IMG/VR virus record: IMGVR_UViG_3300039353_001106
Source: a virus
Direction: 5' to 3' (one strand)
Length of the DNA: 64,000 nucleotides
The notes under the pieces were generated by a model, which did no database searches, was not told the DNA's origin, and was given only the letters and a program-made list of their open reading frames with translations. The translations under genes were made by a program, and so were the position numbers. This document shows positions 14,410 to 63,369 of the stretch, in pieces. Position 1 is the first letter of the stretch, and each line of letters starts with the position of its first letter.

Positions 14410-14410
14410 A

Positions 14411-14460
14411 ACTTTTAATCTTTAATTTTACTTTAATTTCTGTTAATTTACTTAAATAAC
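14411..14460 (-). promoter_or_regulatory. AU-rich gene 32 leader with five TTAA repeats, candidate translational autoregulatory operator
   Basis: Minus strand GTTATTTAAGTAAATTAACAGAAATTAAAGTAAAATTAAAGATTAAAAGT directly upstream of the gp32 start. Confidence 0.45.
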
Positions 14461-14464
14461 TTAT

Positions 14465-14492
14465 ATTATATAAAAAACCTTAAATTTGTTTA
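14465..14492 (-). promoter_or_regulatory. Early/middle-type promoter TAAACAAATT-N10-TATATAAT
   Basis: Same bipartite motif at 14608-14635 and 58106-58134. Confidence 0.55.
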
Positions 14493-14527
14493 TAAAAATA
14501 TGAACTTTATTACATGAGTCTATCCGA

Positions 14528-14602
14528 CTAGAGATTGCTTTTATTAAAGCCTTTTTCGATTTTTAAAGTCCAGTAATTATTGTTAAATTTACTGTTTTCC
14601 AT
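14528..14602 (-). CDS. Possible 24-aa micro-ORF (MENSKFNNNYWTLKIEKGFNKSNL)
   Basis: ATG lies directly below overlapping early-type and late-type motifs; no other support. Confidence 0.25.
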   Translation of the reverse strand: MENSKFNNNYWTLKIEKGFNKSNL

Positions 14603-14607
14603 ATATT

Positions 14608-14635
14608 ATTATATATCTAACTTTAATTTTGTTTA
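14608..14635 (-). promoter_or_regulatory. Overlapping early-type (TAAACAAAAT-N10-TATATAAT) and late-type (GATATATA, 14610-14617) promoter motifs
   Basis: Read directly from the minus strand: TAAACAAAATTAAAGTTAGATATATAAT. Confidence 0.55.
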
Positions 14636-14668
14636 TGTTTAAAAACAACTATTTTTATTTTTACTCCA

Positions 14669-14739
14669 CTTAGACTCTCCTTTCGGTTGTAGGCGTGAGA
14701 TTTGACGCCTCGTTGTTCGGTTATTTAAACCTATCTAAG
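14669..14739 (-). ncRNA. Compact multibranch RNA structure immediately 3' of the tRNA-like element
   Basis: CTTAGA/TCTAAG closing stem enclosing GGTT-TAAAT-AACC, AGGCGT-CAAATCTC-ACGCCT and CC-GAAA-GG hairpins. Confidence 0.5.
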
Positions 14740-14742
14740 AGC

Positions 14743-14876
14743 TGGGGAGTGATGGACTCGAACTATCATCTACTATTCTACACCATTTTCCGTAATAAGT
14801 GATCTGCTTATTCTTCTGGTCTGATCAAGACTTGGTTCAATAAGAATAGTCGCTCTACCAATTGAGCTAACTCCCC
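14743..14876 (-). tRNA. tRNA-like RNA with a 63-nt insert in the anticodon arm (identity uncertain; possible intron-containing tRNA)
   Basis: GGGGAGT/ACTCCCC acceptor stem plus A73; D arm GCTC-AATTGGTA-GAGC; 8-bp ACTATTCT/AGAATAGT stem around the insert; 4-nt variable loop; T arm GATAG-TTCGAGT-CCATC (one mismatch); CCA not encoded. Confidence 0.8.
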
Positions 14877-14892
14877 GTATTTATAAATGGTT

Positions 14893-15012
14893 TTACCTTC
14901 CAACCAGTAAGGCCTTTTGTCTTTCCAACTTAGGTTTAGTCATCGTGGACTTATCACGATATGCCCAGTGTTTTTTACGCACTCTATACAGTCTTCCTAT
15001 TTCAGGAAACAA
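14893..15012 (-). CDS. Possible 39-aa basic small protein (TTG start)
   Basis: MFPEIGRLYRVRKKHWAYRDKSTMTKPKLERQKALLVGR, preceded by AGGTGGAG 5 nt upstream; the region also folds into hairpins, so it may be non-coding. Confidence 0.3.
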   Translation of the reverse strand: MFPEIGRLYRVRKKHWAYRDKSTMTKPKLERQKALLVGR

Positions 15013-15066
15013 TATGTCTCCACCTGTTCGTTTCTTTTATACAACTTTTTGTTTGTTTGTTTATAG

Positions 15067-15104
15067 TTAAATATAATCATTTAAAACGACATAAAAAAAT
15101 CTGG
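15067..15104 (-). repeat. 38-bp exact repeat copy 1, probable promoter
   Basis: CCAGATTTTTTTATGTCGTTTTAAATGATTATATTTAA, identical at 60827-60864. Confidence 0.75.
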
Positions 15105-15174
15105 GTGAATTAATTTTAAAAAAAGTTTATTATTTTTGAAACAAAAGGAGCCTGTGAGCATATAACTTAAGTCT

Positions 15175-15840
15175 TTAAGCAGGAGAGGTAAGATTAGCTG
15201 AAAGGGTTCTAAGCAGAGAATTGAGATAAAAGGCGTCTACTAGGTCATCAAAGGGTTTTGGAACAGACTTTCCAACTTCAAGATTTTTAGAAAAAACCCA
15301 AAATTTGTTCTCCTCCAAAAAACTTTCCCCAGTACGATTCTCAACAAAAACATCCCAAAGAACTCTCTTATTCATATTACCTTTTCCAGCATGTTTCTTA
15401 ATCGTGGCTGGAGCTACAGTTTTAATATCTTCAGGTTTTAAGTGTTTTAAGAGTTTAATTTTAAGAATAGATGCCGCACTCGCCATATCAATTATATTAT
15501 TAGTTCCTCCTTTAGAACCATAAGAGACTCCTTCAAATGCAATTTGATAACCGTCTTCTGGAAAACTGTTTTGAGTAATAAGATTAATAATATCATTTGA
15601 CATTGTATCATACCTCTTTATTTTACCCAACTCAATACTTGAATAGTCTAATTCTTTTTCCCAGTCTGGTTGAAAAACAAGAGTAACCTCATCTAAAAGA
15701 CCCAATTCTTCTTGAAGTTTAATGGCTTTTTTACTTCCATTCTTTTTTACATACGAAATAAAATGGTATTTCTTTTGTTTATCATTAAAGATACAAATTC
15801 CTGGCGAATTTAGTGAAAAATCTATTGTAATAAAGTTCAT
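15175..15840 (-). CDS. ruvC: RuvC-like Holliday junction resolvase
   Basis: ITIDFSLNSPG, IAFEGVSYG, VAPATIKK, DDLVDAF acidic catalytic pattern; likely start MNFITID at 15840 (track gives 15867). Confidence 0.8.
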   Translation of the reverse strand: MNFITIDFSLNSPGICIFNDKQKKYHFISYVKKNGSKKAIKLQEELGLLDEVTLVFQPDWEKELDYSSIELGKIKRYDTMSNDIINLITQNSFPEDGYQIAFEGVSYGSKGGTNNIIDMASAASILKIKLLKHLKPEDIKTVAPATIKKHAGKGNMNKRVLWDVFVENRTGESFLEENKFWVFSKNLEVGKSVPKPFDDLVDAFYLNSLLRTLSANLTSPA

Positions 15841-15841
15841 A

Positions 15842-16210
15842 TTAAAATCTTTTACCGATGGTAGCACCTATTGCGGTACCTACAAGACGTGAGGTTAATA
15901 AATCATAGAGTACTCCTTTTTGTACTCCCAATACTTTAGCAATCATTTTACCCATTGACTTTCCAAGAGCAAAACCTGTTAGACCACCCATAATAGAACC
16001 AAAAAGTCCTTCATTGGTTATTTCAGAATTAAATTTATCTAAGTCTAATTCACCATCTTCATTACGATATTCATTTAAAAACTGATCAACCGCCTGGTCT
16101 ACTTTTTCTTCTAGTTCTGGAGTCCATTCTTGTTGTAAGCCTTCATTTAAGCGTTTTAATTCCTCTGGCGTAACTTTATTTTCTTCTAAATATTCTACAA
16201 ATGTTTTCAT
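15842..16210 (-). CDS. Putative internal-head protein with glycine-zipper hydrophobic C-terminus
   Basis: Leader MKTFVEYLEE; GSIMGGLTGFALGKSMG and LVGTAIGATIG. Confidence 0.65.
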   Translation of the reverse strand: MKTFVEYLEENKVTPEELKRLNEGLQQEWTPELEEKVDQAVDQFLNEYRNEDGELDLDKFNSEITNEGLFGSIMGGLTGFALGKSMGKMIAKVLGVQKGVLYDLLTSRLVGTAIGATIGKRF

Positions 16211-40036: not shown

Positions 40037-40329
40037 TATCTTCTATTATTATCTTTTGGTTTAACTGTAAAATTTTTAAAATTATCAAAATATTTAACAT
40101 GTTCTATAATGTTAAAGAAATAATCTGTTAAAAATTCAACAAAATAAGAAACAACTACATTTCTGTAAATATGCTCTGATAACATATTTTCAAATATTAA
40201 ATCACTATAATCAAAACCAGTGTTTAAGCGTTCATCGTTCTTAGACTTATAAACATCATATCGTTTAATTCTCTTATATCGTTGTAGGTCTTTAAATAAA
40301 CCCTCTTCTAATTTTGGTGTATTGCTCAT
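40036..40329 (-). CDS. Hypothetical baseplate-associated protein (97 aa)
   Basis: Translationally coupled between gp6-like and gp7-like genes. Confidence 0.6.
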   Translation of the reverse strand: MSNTPKLEEGLFKDLQRYKRIKRYDVYKSKNDERLNTGFDYSDLIFENMLSEHIYRNVVVSYFVEFLTDYFFNIIEHVKYFDNFKNFTVKPKDNNRR

Positions 40330-42182
40330 ATCGCTCTTCTATTTCCTGCTTGTATTCTTGAAAAAACAGTGTTAGGTACTGGAGGGTTATCGAAATAAAC
40401 GGATAGTGAGGCCATCTCGCCTATTGTAGGCTCATCCTTGACTAAATCTCCATTTCTATCTTCCCAACCTCCTCTAAAAACTGCAACCTCTTGTTTGTCT
40501 AAAATAATATCTCCATATTTATCTAAACCTATTTTGTTATACCAGTCCTCTATAGCTTTATCACCACCACTAATTGGTATCAACATGTCTGGGTTTGTTA
40601 ATAAAACTTTCTTTTCCTCTACAATTCTTTTAAAGAATACTAATCTTTTTTGTTCTCCTTCTCCTCCTTCTAATTCGGGTGTTGTAGGAACGGTAGTTAC
40701 TTGATTGTAAGTATAGTAACCGTCTCTTCTTGCCTGTTCTTCTACACTTGAAACAAATTGAATATTTACGGCATCTACTCCTTCAACTGTTTCTAAAAGA
40801 GCAATTAAATCACTCTTAGGTAACTTGTCTCTTCTTATTATATTTGTTAAATAATTACTTATTTTGCTTCTAATATCGTTAAATACTTCCTCCTGTTTAA
40901 ACCCTTCAAAATATCGTATAGACACATCCATCCTGTATTTAACTGCCTCAGGTTTAACGAAAATAGCCTCACTTGTAACCATCTGTCTTCCACTATCTTC
41001 TATAACTCCTAACATTCTATCAGTTTCATCTTTTCCAAAAAAGAACTCGCTTTCATCTAGTGAGAAATAATCTGTCCCTTTTAATAGTCTTTTATTCAAA
41101 TCTGGAATTGCAAAAATATACATTACGTTATCATCATCTAAATACCCATCATCAGTTGTATTGTAAACATCTAAATAACTAAATTGCGAATATCTACTTA
41201 AAAAATATTCATAGCTTTCTGGGTTTGCTAACACATAACTCCTACTTGAAACAGGTGTCATCATTTTTGTAAATTCCGGGTTTTCTGCATCTGCTCCCAT
41301 AAACGGGGCTACTGTAACTTCTCCAATTAACAATTCATTTAGGTCATGTGTTTCTTCCATAGAGTCTCTACCCTCGTCAACCCACTTAAATGTTAAATCT
41401 CCTGACTGGTTTAAATTACCCTGTCCACCTTCACATTTAATATATGTAACTTCAATGACCGCTCCAGGAGTTGGAATTACTCCAAAGTTACTTGTCCCAA
41501 AATAAATATCTAAACCTCCTGAAATTCCAGTTTTTAAAACATAACCTTTAGAAGTATCTAACATATCATATAATGATTCGTATTTAGTCCACTTTTCACC
41601 ATTAATAGTAACTGAAACTAGGGAATGGTCTGTTGTTCCTCCTGTTTGTATATTAAAACTTTGAAAACTTTCTCCACTTCCCGTAAGTGTTTGTGATTCT
41701 TGCTTTCCTTGTATTATATTAGCCCTCATCCATTGCTTAGAACCTTTAGGCAATAAAAACTGATCTTTATTTGTTTGTAAAAAATATTTTAGTCCATTAT
41801 TTTCAAACTGAAGTACAGCATTAGGTTCTATTATTAAATTATTACCAGCAACATCATCTCCCTCGCCAGGTTTCCACCTAAACCGTATTTCACCAGTTGC
41901 TGCAAATCCTCTGGTCGCGTCATGTCCTGTAAGTCTTGATAAACCATATATAGATTCAGGTTGCTGAGCAGTATAGATATTTTGTTCTACCGTAACATCC
42001 TCTATATAGAACATTATTAATTCTCCTATGTACGACATAACCTCTAATATCTGTGAATATGGAGAGGCAGCTGTAAAAAAGTTATTTGATCGCTTATATA
42101 CTCTCGACAAGTATGTTCTAGAGTCTTCAAATATTTGTTTACCTGTTATCCTAGCAGAATCTAAAAAATTAAAACTAGCCAT
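40326..42182 (-). CDS. gp6: Baseplate wedge protein gp6 (baseplate J-like)
   Basis: AQQPESIYGLSRLTGH, IYFGTSNFGVIP, GGADxE-like (GADAE), DYE-like (ESYEY) motifs. Confidence 0.85.
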   Translation of the reverse strand: MASFNFLDSARITGKQIFEDSRTYLSRVYKRSNNFFTAASPYSQILEVMSYIGELIMFYIEDVTVEQNIYTAQQPESIYGLSRLTGHDATRGFAATGEIRFRWKPGEGDDVAGNNLIIEPNAVLQFENNGLKYFLQTNKDQFLLPKGSKQWMRANIIQGKQESQTLTGSGESFQSFNIQTGGTTDHSLVSVTINGEKWTKYESLYDMLDTSKGYVLKTGISGGLDIYFGTSNFGVIPTPGAVIEVTYIKCEGGQGNLNQSGDLTFKWVDEGRDSMEETHDLNELLIGEVTVAPFMGADAENPEFTKMMTPVSSRSYVLANPESYEYFLSRYSQFSYLDVYNTTDDGYLDDDNVMYIFAIPDLNKRLLKGTDYFSLDESEFFFGKDETDRMLGVIEDSGRQMVTSEAIFVKPEAVKYRMDVSIRYFEGFKQEEVFNDIRSKISNYLTNIIRRDKLPKSDLIALLETVEGVDAVNIQFVSSVEEQARRDGYYTYNQVTTVPTTPELEGGEGEQKRLVFFKRIVEEKKVLLTNPDMLIPISGGDKAIEDWYNKIGLDKYGDIILDKQEVAVFRGGWEDRNGDLVKDEPTIGEMASLSVYFDNPPVPNTVFSRIQAGNRRAI

Positions 42183-42188
42183 TTATTT

Positions 42189-42545
42189 TTATTCTATTTT
42201 TACACCAACTGCATATCTGTTATCTATTGTCAAAGATAAAACAGCAGCGTCTCTATATTCTCCTTTTGAGAATTCTATATCGACATCCACGCTGTATTTA
42301 CCAGCTAACGGACAATAATCTCTAAGTTGGTCGTTAATTATTCTTTTTATTTCATATTCATTAAAATTAAAACTATATATTAGATCTTCTAAATTTACTC
42401 CAAAACCAGGCTGTCCTAAAACAGATTGTTTATTTGTAAACAAAATAGTCTCTAATTGAGTAATTAATTGTTGAATCTCATTTTCGGTATCAACCGATAA
42501 CGGATCAAAATTAGGGTCCTCTCCTGTTTTAATATATAGTTCCAT
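42189..42545 (-). CDS. gp25: Baseplate protein gp25 (sheath initiator)
   Basis: QLETILFTNK...QPGFGVNLEDLIY...LRDYCP pattern; 118 aa next to gp6. Confidence 0.85.
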   Translation of the reverse strand: MELYIKTGEDPNFDPLSVDTENEIQQLITQLETILFTNKQSVLGQPGFGVNLEDLIYSFNFNEYEIKRIINDQLRDYCPLAGKYSVDVDIEFSKGEYRDAAVLSLTIDNRYAVGVKIE

Positions 42546-43430: not shown

Positions 43431-44744
43431 TTATTTTATTTTTTTACTTTGTACTATTTCAACGTTATCAAATGTCGCTTCTTTTCCTATTTTCCCATGT
43501 CTAAATATACCTCCGATCATTTTACCTTTAAACACTGAGTCCCAGGCCATAACATAACTGTTTTTAACTTCAACGCTGTGGTTTATATAGCATGCGTCTA
43601 TTTTTGAATCTATTGCAGAAGTTCCCTGGTATAGGTTACATCGGGTTAGATATGTAGATTCTAATTGACTTCTAAAAAAATCACAAAAACTTAATAGACC
43701 TCCTACTTTACAGTCTATAAAATCATAATTTTCTAAATTGAAACATAATAAAAGTTCTCCCTCTTTAACTTGCACTCTACCAATATCACTATCATAATTA
43801 ATTACCCCGGACTCTAAACCACCATGTGTTAAAAGCCTTACAACGCCTTGTTTAATTTTAGGCCATTGCAAATCAATTATTTTTTCATTGTTTTTTAAAT
43901 CAACAAAAAGATCTATATCTTTAAAGTGTTTTTTAATATTTCTCCAGTCTTTTAAAATCTCTACAAATTTAAAATTTCTAGCAAGGATCTTTTTTAACTC
44001 TACCAAGTTTAAATCTGTATACTCTTCTTCGTTTGCAGCATACCATAATTGAACAAAAAACCTATCTAGCAAATAAAGTATATTGGACGTCTTTTTTTCA
44101 TAGTCCTTTCCACCAAGGTATCTAAATTCTAAATAACCCTTCTGTAGTTTTTCAAAATTAACACCATAATATTTCTCTTTTCCAAAATCAAAAATATGCG
44201 GGTTAACATGCTGCCCGTTAAAATAATTAGCCTCCGTTCTGGGCATTATCCACTTAATAGACTTCGCATATACACTATTTTTTCTATTTGGAAATAGTTT
44301 ATAAACCTCTCCTTCATTAAAATTTAAAACAAATTTTAACGGGTCCATTTGTGAAATAAGACCGGGTTTTTGTGTTAGCTCAGTATCAAAAGAAACGTTT
44401 AAATGAATAGAGCATTTAGATGTTGTATATCCATTTTCCTCTATCCATTTTAAAACATCTATAATAACCTTTCTAGAAGATTTATATTTTACAGGCCCTG
44501 TAACTAACTCTAAAAGTCCGGCACCTCCACTCATATCTTTTTCTAGTTTCCATTCTTTATCTGTTGGAACAAAATCACTATGCGCCTCGTCTTCAACTCT
44601 TATTTTCTTATCAGTAAGTTTTTCAAAAGCCTTTCCGGTTTTTTCAGGAGATAGGTTCGAGTAAAACTCAAACTCTATTCCTACAAGTCCATAAGACAGA
44701 ATCTCTTCTTTAGTATTTTCTTTAATAGATTGATATGTTAACAT
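43431..44744 (-). CDS. Putative amidoligase (COOH-NH2 ligase fold) with C-terminal beta-helix-like repeats
   Basis: GIEFEF, WKLEKDMS, LELVTGP, CSIHLNVS, KYYGVN, LEFRYLGG. Confidence 0.8.
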   Translation of the reverse strand: MLTYQSIKENTKEEILSYGLVGIEFEFYSNLSPEKTGKAFEKLTDKKIRVEDEAHSDFVPTDKEWKLEKDMSGGAGLLELVTGPVKYKSSRKVIIDVLKWIEENGYTTSKCSIHLNVSFDTELTQKPGLISQMDPLKFVLNFNEGEVYKLFPNRKNSVYAKSIKWIMPRTEANYFNGQHVNPHIFDFGKEKYYGVNFEKLQKGYLEFRYLGGKDYEKKTSNILYLLDRFFVQLWYAANEEEYTDLNLVELKKILARNFKFVEILKDWRNIKKHFKDIDLFVDLKNNEKIIDLQWPKIKQGVVRLLTHGGLESGVINYDSDIGRVQVKEGELLLCFNLENYDFIDCKVGGLLSFCDFFRSQLESTYLTRCNLYQGTSAIDSKIDACYINHSVEVKNSYVMAWDSVFKGKMIGGIFRHGKIGKEATFDNVEIVQSKKIK

Positions 44745-44767
44745 GCGATATTAAAACTTAATTTCTT

Positions 44768-44775
44768 TATATATC
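44768..44775 (-). promoter_or_regulatory. Late-promoter-like motif GATATATA
   Basis: 23 nt upstream of ATG at 44744; overlaps the S1 gene stop. Confidence 0.6.
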
Positions 44776-45991
44776 ACGTATTATTATAATCTATTTTTTT
44801 AAGTTTTAAGAATACTTTTTTAGTTTCAGATTCTATTCTGGTTATCGTGACCTCTATGTTATCTTTTGGCTTATACTTTTTAATATTTTCTTCGCCAACT
44901 TCACTAACATGTAATAAACCAACAACACCTTGTTCTATCTCAATAAAAAGTCCATATTCTTTACAAGATTTGACAACTGCTTCTACAGTTGATGGAACTT
45001 TATATTTTTTATGAATATCAAACCAAGGGTTAACAACGACATCATCCCTTTGGGTTAATGTTATTTTAGTATCAGAAACTATATCTTTAACCTTAAATTT
45101 AATTTCATCTCCAGGTTTAATTTCTCTATTTTTATGCATTGCTAAATGGTCTCCATCCAAATCGTTTACATGTATCATTCCAGTAAGACATTGATTAAAT
45201 TCACAGAATACTCCATATTTGGCGCTACCAGTAACGAACCCTGTTATTTCCTCTTCGTGGTTTTCTTTAAGGCTTTCAATAGCCGCAGGAATTAAAGTTT
45301 TTAAATAAGCCCTGTGCGAAACTACGATCGTGCCTCTTTCTTTTGAATAACTAACGGGTACGACATACATTTCTGAATTTAAAACACTTTCAAAATTATG
45401 TAGCTTATTTATACCAGCAAGGCTTCCTGGCATAAAACAATTTATACCTTTAATGTTAATCATATATCCAGCCTCTTCCATCATTTTAGTAACTACACCA
45501 ACCCATGCTGTATCTTGGGTTTCTATCGTATTGTGCAACTCTGTAAATGTTTGTTGTCTCATCCCCTCAGAGATAGAACCTGTAATATGTCTACTATCAT
45601 TTTCAAGATCAGAAGTTATAATAACCGAAGCCTCTTCTCCAGGTTTAAGATTTCTATATTCAACATCCTCCTTTTCTAAGTTTACAAATATAAGTTGTCT
45701 GTATCCTATATCAAGTGTCATTGTTTTATCATTTACTGAATAAACTTTACCAGAATAACTTTGGCCATAAGTGATGTGAGTAATTTTATCAAACTCCTCC
45801 ATGTGCCCAATAAGCTTATTGTACATTTCCTGTGCATAGGGTTCTCTACAAAATACGCGATGGTTTGGGTCTTTTACTTTAACGTGGGGGTTTGGTTTTC
45901 TTAGAACTTTTGGACAGGTTGCTTCATAACCTTCCCAATCGAAATTACCTTTTGAATCGAAGAAGTCTTCGTTTGATTTTAATTCAATCAT
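44774..45991 (-). CDS. rpsA: Ribosomal protein bS1 homolog, four S1 domains
   Basis: CFMPGS, VVSHRA, YGVFCE..GMIHVNDL, NPW, YGLFIE..GLLHVSEV; N-terminal FDWEGYE like Bacteroidota bS1. Confidence 0.85.
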   Translation of the reverse strand: MIELKSNEDFFDSKGNFDWEGYEATCPKVLRKPNPHVKVKDPNHRVFCREPYAQEMYNKLIGHMEEFDKITHITYGQSYSGKVYSVNDKTMTLDIGYRQLIFVNLEKEDVEYRNLKPGEEASVIITSDLENDSRHITGSISEGMRQQTFTELHNTIETQDTAWVGVVTKMMEEAGYMINIKGINCFMPGSLAGINKLHNFESVLNSEMYVVPVSYSKERGTIVVSHRAYLKTLIPAAIESLKENHEEEITGFVTGSAKYGVFCEFNQCLTGMIHVNDLDGDHLAMHKNREIKPGDEIKFKVKDIVSDTKITLTQRDDVVVNPWFDIHKKYKVPSTVEAVVKSCKEYGLFIEIEQGVVGLLHVSEVGEENIKKYKPKDNIEVTITRIESETKKVFLKLKKIDYNNT

Positions 45992-46017
45992 TTTTATTTT
46001 TTTAAGTGTTAATAAGT

Positions 46018-46025
46018 TATATATC
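46018..46025 (-). promoter_or_regulatory. Late-promoter-like motif GATATATA
   Basis: 26 nt upstream of the bS1 start. Confidence 0.6.
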
Positions 46026-46574: not shown

Positions 46575-47333
46575 TTATTGTGTTTTACTTACTTGACTTA
46601 ACTCCTGTCCTGTTAAAGGAACTATAGGTGGTGAAGTTGGCAAACCAAAACCTATCGCAGTATGGGTATGTGTATTAAATAACGCCTGAAATATATTTCC
46701 TTTTATCAATTGCTGGGCTGCCATCTCACCTAACTCTACTGCAGGACTATTAACATGAACTTTATTTGCTATTATTTCTACATCAGCAGGAGTTTCTACT
46801 GTAATATCAGATTCTGAATTTATATAAATAGTATCCGTTGCTTTTATTTCTACTTGATTCTCAGTATAAAGATAAATTTTATCTGCTGAATCTAATTGAA
46901 TAAGAGGAGATTCTTGGTCTCCGGAACCTGTTGTAATTACTAGCCCATTTTCAGGACTCCAATACGCTCTTAAATTTCTTACAGAATCATATACAAGAGA
47001 AATAACATTTTGTGGTTCTCCACTAGATTCTAAAATATCTGCTTTTAAATCATCGTTTTGATTTACTTGAAATTCATACTCTGGATGGTATATGTCTCCG
47101 TTATCAAACCTTATTGAAACAATATCTCCTATTCTAGGAACAGCATGGGAACCTGGTAACATTCTGTTTTGAGGAGTAGCCCATGGAATATTTTCTGTAG
47201 ATATATTATCAAACTTACCAAATACTTTAATTTTACATCTTCCATTTAAAAGAGGGTCTTCGTTATCCATGACCTCTCCTAACCAGTGAGTATCCCTTAT
47301 GTTATCATTATAGATTTCTTTAATGTCTTTCAT
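46575..47333 (-). CDS. gp5: Baseplate central spike, gp5-like OB-fold plus beta-helix, no lysozyme domain
   Basis: WLGEVMDNEDPLLNGRCKIKVFG, IPWATP, PRIGDIV; beta-helix repeats; C-terminal HTH (His-x-His) tip motif. Confidence 0.8.
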   Translation of the reverse strand: MKDIKEIYNDNIRDTHWLGEVMDNEDPLLNGRCKIKVFGKFDNISTENIPWATPQNRMLPGSHAVPRIGDIVSIRFDNGDIYHPEYEFQVNQNDDLKADILESSGEPQNVISLVYDSVRNLRAYWSPENGLVITTGSGDQESPLIQLDSADKIYLYTENQVEIKATDTIYINSESDITVETPADVEIIANKVHVNSPAVELGEMAAQQLIKGNIFQALFNTHTHTAIGFGLPTSPPIVPLTGQELSQVSKTQ

Positions 47334-62929: not shown

Positions 62930-63115
62930 CTAATTTTTATCTCCAAACTTGTTTTGAACGTATTTAGCCTTACCTATCTCAGCTCTTCTTTTAACAGACT
63001 TTTTGGTAAAGTATTTTTTTTCGTTTAATTTTCTATTTTGCTTTGTTCTTATAACCTTACCTTTGAGTTGCTTAAGAGCCCTCTCTATATTCTTCGTATC
63101 TTTTATTATTAACAT
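62930..63115 (-). CDS. rpsU: Ribosomal protein bS21, Bacteroidota type
   Basis: MLII..KNIERALK..K.K.......FTKKSVKRRAEI.KA.Y matches the Bacteroidota bS21 pattern; 61 aa, very basic. Confidence 0.9.
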   Translation of the reverse strand: MLIIKDTKNIERALKQLKGKVIRTKQNRKLNEKKYFTKKSVKRRAEIGKAKYVQNKFGDKN

Positions 63116-63369
63116 AGTTTATTTATCAATTTTTTTATTTCACTACATTTCTCGTATTCTTCTGTTAAAGTATACCAATTTAATAAAGATTCAAGAGCTT
63201 TTATTTTTAATTTTTTAGGAAACTCTCCATATAGGGCATAACTAGGGTCTTTCATTATAGCCTTATAAACCGTATCATATATATGACCAGGGTGTATTTC
63301 TTTATTTAACAACATATTAAAAAAATCTTCATAATCATTATAACCACTATAAATATTATCTTCCACCAC
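63109..63369 (-). CDS. Hypothetical protein with UVR-like C-terminal helix (EEYEKC)
   Basis: LLNWYTLTEEYEKCSEIKKL. Confidence 0.65.
   Translation of the reverse strand: MVEDNIYSGYNDYEDFFNMLLNKEIHPGHIYDTVYKAIMKDPSYALYGEFPKKLKIKALESLLNWYTLTEEYEKCSEIKKLINKLC
63120..63127 (-). promoter_or_regulatory. Late-promoter-like motif GATAAATA
   Basis: GATAAATA-AACT-ATG of bS21, embedded in the upstream gene's 3' end. Confidence 0.6.

Follow-up and report, generated by a model that had tools for sequence, protein, structure and literature searches.

The window analysed here, a stretch of 64,000 nucleotides of viral DNA (IMG/VR record IMGVR_UViG_3300039353_001106), carries a gene for a homologue of ribosomal protein bS1 with four OB folds (phage S1), an identification based on rpsA models, solved structures and an AF2 model. 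The reading that we prefer, with a probability of about 0.6, is that the protein would be a phage version of bS1, fitted to the ribosome of a Bacteroidia host and docking at the bS1 site. Docking is proposed because domains D1 and D2, both N-terminal helices and an arginine (Arg98) at the position of E. coli Lys43 are conserved. Phage S1 proteins were already known, and what is added here is evidence from sequence and structure prediction which suggests that they may dock on the ribosome. The open reading frame lies on the minus strand exactly at 44774-45991 (405 aa, ATG to stop, the stop codon being counted in the coordinates), amid phage baseplate genes, as the initial annotation of this DNA had placed it; the interpretation which that annotation built on the gene is, as a whole, partly supported by our results.

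Twelve rpsA models aligned to phage S1 in a single collinear stretch, and over the whole length of the protein the rpsA models scored 100-153 bits, whereas models of non-ribosomal S1-domain proteins (GSP13/CvfD, PNPase, RNase II/R, Tex, NusA and Rrp5) reached at most 65 bits and covered one domain only. All scores lie far below the curated NCBIfam rpsA cut-offs of 368-918 bits; for the best score, 153 bits, the comparison is with 524 bits or more. E. coli bS1 was matched at E 2e-38 with the single sequence and at 5.5e-76 with the family profile, and bS1 of F. johnsoniae (9zcd_A) was matched by the family profile at E 1.7e-69. The AF2 model had a pLDDT of 89.3, and its best Foldseek and VIA matches were all ribosome-bound bS1 (9gut_B, E 1.5e-27; 9guq_B, Z 12.0, with model residues 58-231). 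By models, structures and profile alike, ribosomal bS1 is a closer match to phage S1 than is any S1-domain protein from outside the ribosome. When only the N-terminal 75 or 160 residues were searched as a single sequence, no solved structure was matched; the N-terminal matches to bS1 described below were reached with the family profile and hhalign only.

In the AF2 model the four OB folds lie at about residues 78-139, 163-225, 249-313 and 334-397. Pfam S1 matched the protein (E 1.3e-22) in two stretches, in OB domains 3 and 4, and called neither D1 nor D2. Profiles specific for each domain were built from 25 Bacteroidia bS1 and scored on 67 members of the phage clade. OB domain 1 (45572-45766, minus strand; residues 76-140, with Asp94, Tyr97 and Arg98 invariant) is of the host D1 type, the host D1 profile being the best in 57/67 members with a mean of just 11.6 bits. 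OB domain 2 (45308-45514, minus strand; residues 160-228) is of the host D2 type (best in 61 of the 67, mean 31.8 bits), and D1-D2 of the model overlie the same pair in ribosome-bound E. coli bS1 (Z 12.0, rmsd 4.9, 169 residues). Both remaining domains are canonical RNA-binding S1 repeats. OB domain 3 (45044-45256, minus strand; residues 246-316) is nearest to host D5, which was the best profile in 63/67 members (28.0 bits, versus 21.2 for D4 and 13.0 for D3); for OB domain 4 (44795-45001, minus strand; residues 331-399), which holds the best Pfam S1 stretch (residues 335-397), the host D4 and D5 profiles tie at a mean of 31.6 bits each.

The protein of the window stops 6 residues past OB domain 4, and at most 5 residues follow this domain in 19/19 aligned relatives. 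No D6-like domain was found among the four phage repeats with the per-domain profiles, and six Pfam S1 repeats were counted in each of three Bacteroidia bS1. The count given in the initial annotation, four domains against six in the host, was therefore right. Its description of the protein as D1-D4 only holds for the number four and for D1-D2; because the last two repeats resemble host D4/D5, the wording "D1-D4, truncated" is valid for domain number only. A collinear D1-D4 assignment, obtained with HMMER, was dropped for the last two domains, for which MAFFT and the per-domain profiles gave D4/D5. Truncation in the proper sense is not supported either: the four-domain form is itself conserved and under purifying selection (median dN/dS 0.07 over 128 pairs). 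Location of D5-D6 on a separate reading frame was considered, and no second S1-domain frame occurs anywhere in the window.

N-terminal to D1 lies an aromatic helix of the Bacteroidia type (45920-45964, minus strand; residues 10-24, with Phe17, Trp19 and Tyr22). It contains the motif Asn16-Phe17-Asp-Trp19-Glu-Gly-Tyr22-Glu23, in which Phe17 and Trp19 are invariant, and Tyr22 and Glu23 at least 90% conserved, among 20 family members. Of 31 Bacteroidia bS1 sampled, 23 have a [D/N]-F-[D/N]-W motif ahead of D1; none of 30 bS1 from the remaining classes of Bacteroidota has it, nor do 25 further long bS1 or the bS1 of Acinetobacter and Staphylococcus. When the helix was compared by hhalign with the N-termini of Bacteroidia bS1, P was 1.3e-6 for motif-selected sets and 3.9e-5 for unselected ones, versus 0.025 and 0.44 for other bS1 groups. 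The FDW..YE segment that had been called Bacteroidota-like is thus present, and its profile match is specific to Bacteroidia. Residues Asn16-Tyr22 (NFDWEGY) match residues 14-20 (NFNWHNF) of F. johnsoniae bS1, in which a helix of residues 11-20 was modelled docked on the 30S in 2026 (PMC13000457). The aromatic helix is carried by just about 20 of 55 clade members and is therefore dispensable for the function of the clade.

Two further elements separate this helix from D1. The first is a conserved basic insert between the N-terminal helices (45848-45919, minus strand; residues 25-48), which cellular bS1 lack and at which hhalign opens a gap of some 15 residues against Bacteroidia bS1; Cys26, Asn34 and Lys38 are invariant in it, and Pro27, Arg31, Pro35 and His36 are at least 90% conserved. 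The second is a helix (45791-45847, minus strand; residues 49-67, with Tyr52-Ala53-Gln54 and Tyr57 invariant) that is the putative counterpart of the uS2-binding helix of bS1. AF2 places the helix at residues 53-67; the family profile aligns it with residues 33-40 of F. johnsoniae bS1, and in the structural superposition model residues 56-67 fall on residues 1-13 of E. coli bS1. Tyr52-Ala-Gln and Tyr57, all invariant, belong to the helix that corresponds to E. coli Phe5-Ala-Gln-Leu-Phe9. Sequence and structure differ in register: by superposition, the E. coli helix is matched by residues 58-67, which are not conserved, and the conserved stretch is 49-57, so that the candidate uS2-contacting residues are ambiguous. 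Within D1, E. coli Asp39/Gly41/Lys43 align with phage Asp94/Gly96/Arg98, of which Asp94 and Arg98 are invariant in the family. Lys43, in loop 2 of E. coli D1, enters a pocket of uS2 (PMC10123108).

These anchor elements also bear on a different explanation, namely that phage S1 is an RNA-binding factor that works off the ribosome and not on the 30S: it would chaperone RNA as a free protein, protect mRNA, or assist a phage nuclease or polymerase as cofactor. S1 domains are common in non-ribosomal proteins; host S1 is documented to work with phages off the ribosome (PMC13157829), and it serves T4 RegB and Q-beta replicase; in the latter D1-D2 anchor S1 to the polymerase, and the entries 4q7j and 4r71 are among the structure and sequence matches of phage S1. 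The scores below the rpsA cut-offs are in line with such a factor as well. Nevertheless, we think it unlikely, since the aromatic helix, the putative counterpart of the uS2 helix and the basic residue in place of Lys43 are conserved and have no known role off the ribosome, and since the Pfam scan found no domain besides S1, hence no fused catalytic or partner domain. Previous authors did not call viral S1 ribosomal (Mizuno 2019, PMC6375957; Al-Shayeb 2020, PMC7162821), because S1 domains occur in many unrelated proteins.

Phage S1 belongs to a phage-only clade of 543 IMG/VR contigs that includes Lak and Mahaphage-type genomes and LR756500; the DNA of relatives was drawn from IMG/VR. That S1 homologues occur in huge phages, as the initial annotation stated, is borne out by the published genomes with a "possible rpS1" (Al-Shayeb 2020, PMC7162821): their S1 and that of the window group together in a single clade (SH-aLRT 100 in both trees), and tblastn of the window protein against the S1 of LR756500-504 and Lak gave 26-38% identity, 38% for the nearest. 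In the ML trees this clade stands separate on a long stem, neither within nor next to Bacteroidia bS1, and a tree in which it was held with Bacteroidia bS1 was not rejected by the AU test (p 0.53). Matches labelled as phage from Acinetobacter and Staphylococcus were set aside; the Acinetobacter record has a chromosomal rpsA between cmk and himD, and that of Staphylococcus is flagged UNVERIFIED_ORG. This check of records covered Acinetobacter and Staphylococcus; the same list also had matches from Escherichia, Listeria and Enterococcus. PHROGs contained no family matching phage S1, and megablast of 10 kb of the window against phage records gave no match.

A promoter-like element, GATATATAA, lies at 46017-46025 on the minus strand, 25 nt upstream of the S1 start codon. 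It occurs 12 times in the window, always on the coding strand (3.5 copies are expected over both strands; 57 of 57 counted genes are on the minus strand), and in 54 of the 79 viral loci that are orthologous a copy precedes the S1 ATG by 22-32 nt. One-mismatch variants were seen at the same spot in the non-matching loci inspected (12/25). A second copy (44767-44775, minus strand) overlaps the S1 stop codon, lies 22 nt upstream of the next gene, and is found at the same place in 42 of 80 related loci. The motif behind the promoter claimed earlier is thus real, conserved and strand-specific. As for the claim that the promoter is a late one, we infer late expression of S1 only from the motif and the baseplate context: since S1, within the baseplate module, has a conserved promoter-like element to itself, it is probably produced along with virion genes. 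Late production, if real, rules out help by S1 in early takeover.

Between the element and the start codon, the S1 leader (45992-46016, minus strand), as read from the sequence, is short, G-free, A-rich and without a Shine-Dalgarno (SD) sequence. These properties are conserved over 80 loci, with G at 0-3% at each position from -20 to -1. Leaders across the window are likewise A-rich and lack SD sequences. In Bacteroidia, translation is initiated without SD pairing, and reliance on bS1 and upstream adenines is thought likely. The window comes from a giant marine phage that probably infects Bacteroidia of the marine Flavobacteriaceae; the nearest phages infect Bacteroidota, and one relative was binned in a Flavobacteriaceae MAG.

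The window also encodes a bS21 of 61 aa (62930-63115, minus strand; Pfam Ribosomal_S21, 35.1 bits, cut-off 27) with the Bacteroidia-specific Tyr52. Its best solved match is F. johnsoniae bS21 (7jil_z), whose Tyr54 is aligned with Tyr52, and by this alignment phage bS21 keeps the tyrosine that sequesters the anti-SD. The initial annotation took bS21 to be a partner of S1. It is indeed located in the same window, but the two are no obligate pair, because they are separated by about 17 kb, with different genes around each, and because bS21 is absent from the S1-carrying relatives LR756500 and Lak-A2; bS21 accompanies S1 in some lineages only. In F. johnsoniae, bS21 is required for the N-terminus of bS1 to be stably visible on the 30S (PMC13000457), which makes a joint role of S1 and bS21 plausible.

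If phage S1 is a version of bS1 fitted to the host ribosome, it would dock on the host 30S at the usual bS1 site, where attachment of bS1 is weak and exchanging, and host bS1 would be supplemented or displaced. The basic insert between the helices may give extra contacts that aid this competition. The two RNA-binding repeats would catch the short, A-rich, SD-less phage leaders, and phage bS21, in which the residue that keeps the anti-SD out of play is retained, would maintain the platform under bS1. [quoted passage not shown] Without two of the four C-terminal repeats, phage S1 may retain initiation and lose accessory functions. It was reported that D1-D3 of E. coli S1 keep 30S binding, mRNA docking and unfolding, D5-D6 being dispensable (PMC3858243). 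The proposal of the initial annotation that the phage thereby favours its late mRNAs is conjectural. An extension of this scheme, which we put forward tentatively and consider rather improbable, is that phage S1, with bS21 where present, makes a specialised 30S that would favour very short leaders rich in A and free of G and, for want of two C-terminal repeats, be uncoupled from host mRNA decay and regulation; the invariably adjacent amidoligase-like enzyme could join this cassette.

The same anchor evidence would serve a protein of opposite effect, a ribosome-bound inhibitor or specificity switch that blocks host mRNAs in need of full-length bS1, while very short phage leaders still initiate. 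Phage S1 has two RNA-binding repeats versus four in the host, and phage leaders behind the promoter-like motif are short, with 18-33 nt from motif to ATG. We nonetheless hold such inhibition to be quite improbable, because E. coli S1 without D5-D6 supports growth (PMC3858243) and a four-domain S1 therefore need not inhibit.

The genes flanking S1 are a gp25-like gene, an injector OB-domain hub and a gp6-like wedge, and the position of S1 between the baseplate hub and wedge genes is constant (73/74 and 79/79 loci). This constancy might indicate that S1 is virion cargo, which is packaged, injected and acts on ribosomes at the onset of the next infection; that is very improbable, since in Lak and Mahaphage-type genomes over 100 kb separate S1 from the gp6-like gene, and since the N-termini are variable, with [L/I]-x-E within the first 16 residues in just 25 of 120 family members. 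No T4-type capsid-targeting leader was consistent across the family. Directly 3' of S1, on the same strand in 79/79 loci, is an amidoligase-like gene (43431-44744, minus strand; Pfam Amidoligase_2, E 1.5e-4, at the cut-off); in LR756500, too, such a gene follows S1 in the same orientation, at a distance of about 1.3 kb.

Taken as a bS1 that may dock on the ribosome, phage S1 has a wider meaning. An abundant clade of phages, with hosts assigned or predicted as Bacteroidia, keeps features that would be superfluous in a generic RNA binder, namely D1/D2, the putative counterpart of the uS2 helix, the basic residue at the position of the uS2 pocket and, in part of the clade, the aromatic helix. Our survey of the literature found no test of the incorporation of a viral S1 into host ribosomes. 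Because initiation can already be studied in a purified system from F. johnsoniae in which bS1 and bS21 are separable, it is directly testable whether phages re-equip ribosomes to bias initiation.

Among known systems, bS1 of F. johnsoniae and other Bacteroidia (9zcd chain A; PMC13000457) shares with phage S1 the D1-D2 type, the Asn-Phe-x-Trp-x-x-aromatic helix, the second helix before D1, the canonical RNA-binding repeats and the setting of SD-less, A-rich leaders. Phage S1 differs in having four OB domains instead of six, no D6-like domain and a basic insert of about 15 residues, and, at 25-27% identity, it forms a separate long-stemmed clade. With E. coli bS1 it has in common the collinear domain order, superposing D1-D2, the basic residue at the Lys43 position and the aromatic-Ala-Gln helix motif; in contrast, the E. 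coli protein, with six domains, lacks an upstream aromatic helix and works with SD pairing. The four-domain S1 of Firmicutes (NCBIfam PRK06676) likewise has four repeats and a similar length and aligns to residues 64-401, but the 118 bits of phage S1 are far under its cut-off of 368; Staphylococcus S1 lacks both N-terminal helices and falls outside the phage clade. Phage bS21 (Mizuno 2019, PMC6375957; Chen 2022, PMC9723584) likewise copies, in a phage, a protein located at the 30S mRNA exit/platform, although a different one, and viral ribosomal proteins, which were not specified, are reported to have been incorporated experimentally into host ribosomes (PMC13157829). The "possible rpS1" of huge phages (PMC7162821; LR756500-LR756504, Lak) is of the same clade and four-domain size as the protein of the window and, in LR756500, at the same position in the baseplate module. 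The account of Al-Shayeb 2020 gave no domain assignment or anchor analysis and called a true rpS1 hard to confirm; the link which it drew between S1 and SD-less genomes holds for the window too.

The reading frame at 44774-45991 was recovered exactly as first called, on the minus strand, with an ATG start and a product of 405 aa (phage S1). All 57 counted genes of the window (GC about 32%) lie on the minus strand, and S1 has baseplate genes as neighbours there: a gp6-like wedge gene (40326-42182), a gp25-like gene (42189-42545) and an injector OB-domain hub (46575-47333). A UvsW-like helicase, a primase and a gp32-like SSB are found elsewhere in the window, together with PhoH, RNase HII, UvdE, a DnaJ C-terminal domain protein and a 61-aa bS21; ARAGORN found no tRNA in it. 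The baseplate wedge protein is 40% identical to that of the 462-kb uncultured phage LR756500, with more distant relatives in Lak phages and in jumbo phages of Tenacibaculum, Flavobacterium and Chryseobacterium, and related contigs reach 205-215 kb. Therefore, the window is jumbo-phage DNA, and the host is probably a member of Bacteroidia. At least two contigs (C26, C33) of a related jumbo phage occur in the Flavobacteriaceae MAG SAT1509, which has its own 634-aa bS1 and bS21. One carries an S1 with 53% identity to that of the window, and the other a bS21 with 52% identity, again in the order DnaJ-bS21-PhoH. These contigs represent either a host link or contamination of the bin by phage.

Phage S1 is a homologue of bS1 and not merely a protein with S1 domains. 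It aligned collinearly to twelve NCBIfam rpsA models, in a single stretch over almost its full length, with scores of up to 153 bits, as against at most 65 bits for single-domain S1 families, although all NCBIfam scores were far under the curated cut-offs. Among solved structures, E. coli bS1 was matched with an E value of 2e-38 from the single sequence and 5.5e-76 from the 67-member family profile, and F. johnsoniae bS1 (9zcd_A) with 1.7e-69. A confident AlphaFold2 model built on the family alignment (mean pLDDT 89.3, pTM 0.68) contains four OB folds at approximately 78-139, 163-225, 249-313 and 334-397, and its top structural matches were, without exception, ribosome-bound bS1. The D1-D2 part superposed on E. 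coli D1-D2 of the 30S pre-initiation complex with a Z score of 12.0 and an rmsd of 4.9 over 169 residues.

The initial annotation had described a truncated protein retaining D1-D4 only of a six-domain host bS1. Host Bacteroidia bS1 does contain six Pfam S1 repeats, and the four domains and the host-type D1 and D2 were borne out; the last two repeats, however, match host D5 and D4/D5. Six per-domain profiles made from 25 Bacteroidia bS1 were scored on each phage domain in 67 members of the clade. Phage D1 and D2 best matched host D1 (57/67 members) and D2 (61/67), respectively, and phage D3 best matched host D5 in 63 of the 67 (28.0 bits, versus 21.2 for D4 and 13.0 for D3), while phage D4 was tied between host D4 and D5 (31.6 bits each). 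The profiles detected no D6-like domain among these members, and MAFFT also paired phage D3/D4 with host D4/D5. In view of this resemblance, phage S1 is most accurately described, as judged from its sequence, as a D1-D2 anchor followed by two canonical RNA-binding repeats, and the data do not support a plain C-terminal cut behind D4. In all 19 aligned relatives the C-terminal end lies no more than 5 residues past the last domain, and there is no second S1-domain reading frame within the window; thus the four-domain form is a stable architecture.

The N-terminal 75 residues of the family are conserved and comprise two modules. The first is an aromatic helix, Asn16-Phe17-Asp-Trp19-Glu-Gly-Tyr22, and its likeness to Bacteroidota, proposed at the outset, can be narrowed to one class: [D/N]-F-[D/N]-W precedes D1 in 23 of 31 sampled Bacteroidia bS1 and in none of 30 bS1 from other Bacteroidota classes or 25 other long bS1, and it is lacking in Acinetobacter and Staphylococcus bS1. 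Profile-profile comparison of unselected N-termini gave P values of 3.9e-5 for Bacteroidia, 0.025 for other Bacteroidota classes and 0.44 for other bS1; motif-selected sets gave 1.3e-6, a value biased upward by the selection. It was demonstrated by cryo-EM of the F. johnsoniae 30S subunit (2026) that bS1 residues 4-40 form a helix-loop-helix, stable on uS2 and uS8, whose first helix (residues 11-20) is aromatic (residues 14-20, Asn-Phe-Asn-Trp-His-Asn-Phe), and that the density of residues 4-40 disappears without bS21 (PMC13000457). The aromatic helix occurs in about 20 of 55 clade members, spread across subclades, so that it is either ancestral with repeated loss or non-essential. The subclade of LR756500 (S1 at 14863-16032 of that genome; also P0133, P0135, P0136, P0138, P0140, P0141, P0147 and P0155) has no Phe-x-Trp helix; conserved Asp/Asn-Pro-Phe-Asp/Glu and then Pro-Lys/Arg-Gly-x-Lys-Ile-Leu-Ser are present instead, which may form an alternative anchor.

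The second module, almost universal across the clade, is a helix at 53-67 that is preceded by invariant Tyr52-Ala-Gln and has Tyr57 inside. It corresponds to F. johnsoniae bS1 residues 33-40 in the family profile alignment and to E. coli bS1 residues 1-13 in the superposition of the model. In that E. coli helix, Phe5 and Phe9 stack on uS2 (PMC10123108). The predicted uS2-contact register is ambiguous, because the conserved residues 49-57 sit just ahead of the stretch superposing on the E. coli helix. The two modules are separated by an insert (about 15 residues, conserved and basic) that cellular bS1 lacks. Two invariant residues of D1, Asp94 and Arg98, line up with Asp39 and Lys43 of E. coli bS1, and it is Lys43 that enters the uS2 pocket (PMC10123108).

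A word-indexed search returned more than 120 clusters with 54-86% identity to phage S1, many of them marine, mostly of 395-439 aa with a few shorter, partial ones. When 1.8 billion representatives were searched exhaustively, single-stretch proteins of 340-460 aa ranked highest (30-52% identity), while long cellular bS1 reached only 25-30%. Relatives were present on 543 viral contigs of IMG/VR, and of three similar viral proteins in BFVD (373-385 aa), two carry the name '30S ribosomal protein S1' and the third is entered as 'S1 motif domain-containing protein'. Two 'phage' records, one under Acinetobacter (CAKLQH020000011.1) and one under Staphylococcus (OR844988.1), encode full-length bacterial-type rpsA, flanked in the former by cmk and himD, and the latter is flagged UNVERIFIED_ORG; both look like host DNA, were set aside, and would falsely raise counts of phage S1. 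In two ML trees built on 330 shared columns, 54 of 55 short proteins formed a single clade on a long stem (SH-aLRT 100), including Lak-A2, LR756501, LR756504 and LR756500. Bacteroidia bS1 formed a separate clade (support 100), and in neither tree was the phage clade nested within it; a tree holding the two together was not rejected by the AU test (p 0.53) and had a likelihood 1.6 units above the free tree. The simplest reading would be that the phage gene came from a Bacteroidia host and then diverged rapidly, because the N-terminal helix is common to both; the alternative is convergence on the host docking site.

S1 is under strong purifying selection, with a median dN/dS of 0.07 (range 0.024-0.131; 128 pairs of 85-98.5% protein identity). 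An amidoligase-like gene (43431-44744, minus strand; weak Pfam Amidoligase_2) lies directly 3' of S1 in 79/79 loci, and the hub gene upstream in 73/74. LR756500 has the same gene order, amidoligase-like gene included, at 30-42% protein identity; in Lak and Mahaphage-type genomes, over 100 kb separate S1 from the wedge gene.

The promoter proposed ahead of S1 proved to be a conserved, strand-specific element. The window has 12 copies of GATATATA[A/G], on the coding strand only, compared with 3.5 expected on both strands, and 7 of them lie 18-33 nt ahead of start codons, mostly in the structural module and never before replication genes or bS21. One copy (14609-14617) falls in a 765-nt region (14410-15174) that contains no long ORF. 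The motif was found 22-32 nt upstream of the S1 ATG in 54/79 orthologous loci (background, 0.018 per 120 nt), and one-mismatch variants occupy the same position in 12 inspected non-matching loci. Of 103 exact copies across related loci, 55 precede S1 and 42 sit at its stop, just ahead of the amidoligase-like gene, whose own copy in the window overlaps the S1 stop codon; only 2 are on the opposite strand. The motif thus distributed supports a dedicated promoter-type element, and its context suggests a late promoter.

The S1 leader is conserved and nearly G-free. Across the 57 window genes, A makes up 47-68% of positions -18 to -3, against a background of 39%, and G 2-21%; an SD-like core is present in only 5. 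The initiation regions of the window are of Bacteroidia style. The bS21 noted in the initial annotation is present at 62930-63115 (minus strand), above the Pfam cut-off. F. johnsoniae bS21 is its top match among solved structures; there, the Bacteroidia-specific Tyr54 stacks on A1534 and helps sequester the anti-SD (PMC7797042), and phage Tyr52 aligns with this residue. bS21 was also found in LR756501 and LR756504, and was looked for and absent in LR756500 and Lak-A2. Within 62930-63127, a one-mismatch motif variant, GATAAATAA, precedes the bS21 ATG by only about 4 nt, and bS21 and the gene upstream of it share 7 nt; the transcription context of bS21 is therefore unlike that of S1.

Beside the bS1 homology, domain make-up, host-class-specific anchor features, purifying selection, promoter-like element and companion bS21 of the lineage seen here stands its probable function: phage S1 would dock on host 30S subunits at the site used by bS1, its two RNA-binding repeats would recruit short A-rich leaders, and it would supplement or replace host bS1. 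Such docking and recruitment are reasonable because E. coli S1 cut down to D1-D3 still binds the 30S and still docks and unfolds mRNA, and growth does not require D5-D6 (PMC3858243); when E. coli S1 lacks D5-D6, it is specifically 16S maturation and the mRNA decay linked to the degradosome that are impaired (bioRxiv 10.1101/2021.10.20.465233). Less probable readings of phage S1 are an off-ribosome RNA factor, a protein that inhibits by filling the bS1 site, and virion cargo; the conserved anchor features, which have no obvious off-ribosome purpose, and the lack of a consistent capsid-targeting leader in the S1 family count against this group of readings.

Phage S1 as such is already known. Al-Shayeb et al. 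reported S1 genes in huge phages, tied them to genomes without SD sequences and found a true rpS1 hard to confirm (PMC7162821), Mizuno et al. left S1 out on the same ground (PMC6375957), and a bS1 of a jumbo cyanophage has been described (PMC13157829); a literature phrase search found one distinct paper that names phage-encoded S1, and just in passing. Three things are added here: sequence and structure-prediction evidence that the clade retains the ribosome anchor, including an element otherwise confined to Bacteroidia; a revised assignment of the domains; and conservation of both the promoter-like element and the gene order. One subfamily (P0055, P0095, P0121 and others; about 425-439 aa) carries an extra N-terminal extension of 30-45 residues beginning with a conserved basic Lys-Asn-Lys-Arg-x-Arg, reminiscent of the basic extensions that have been reported at the N-terminus of phage bS21.
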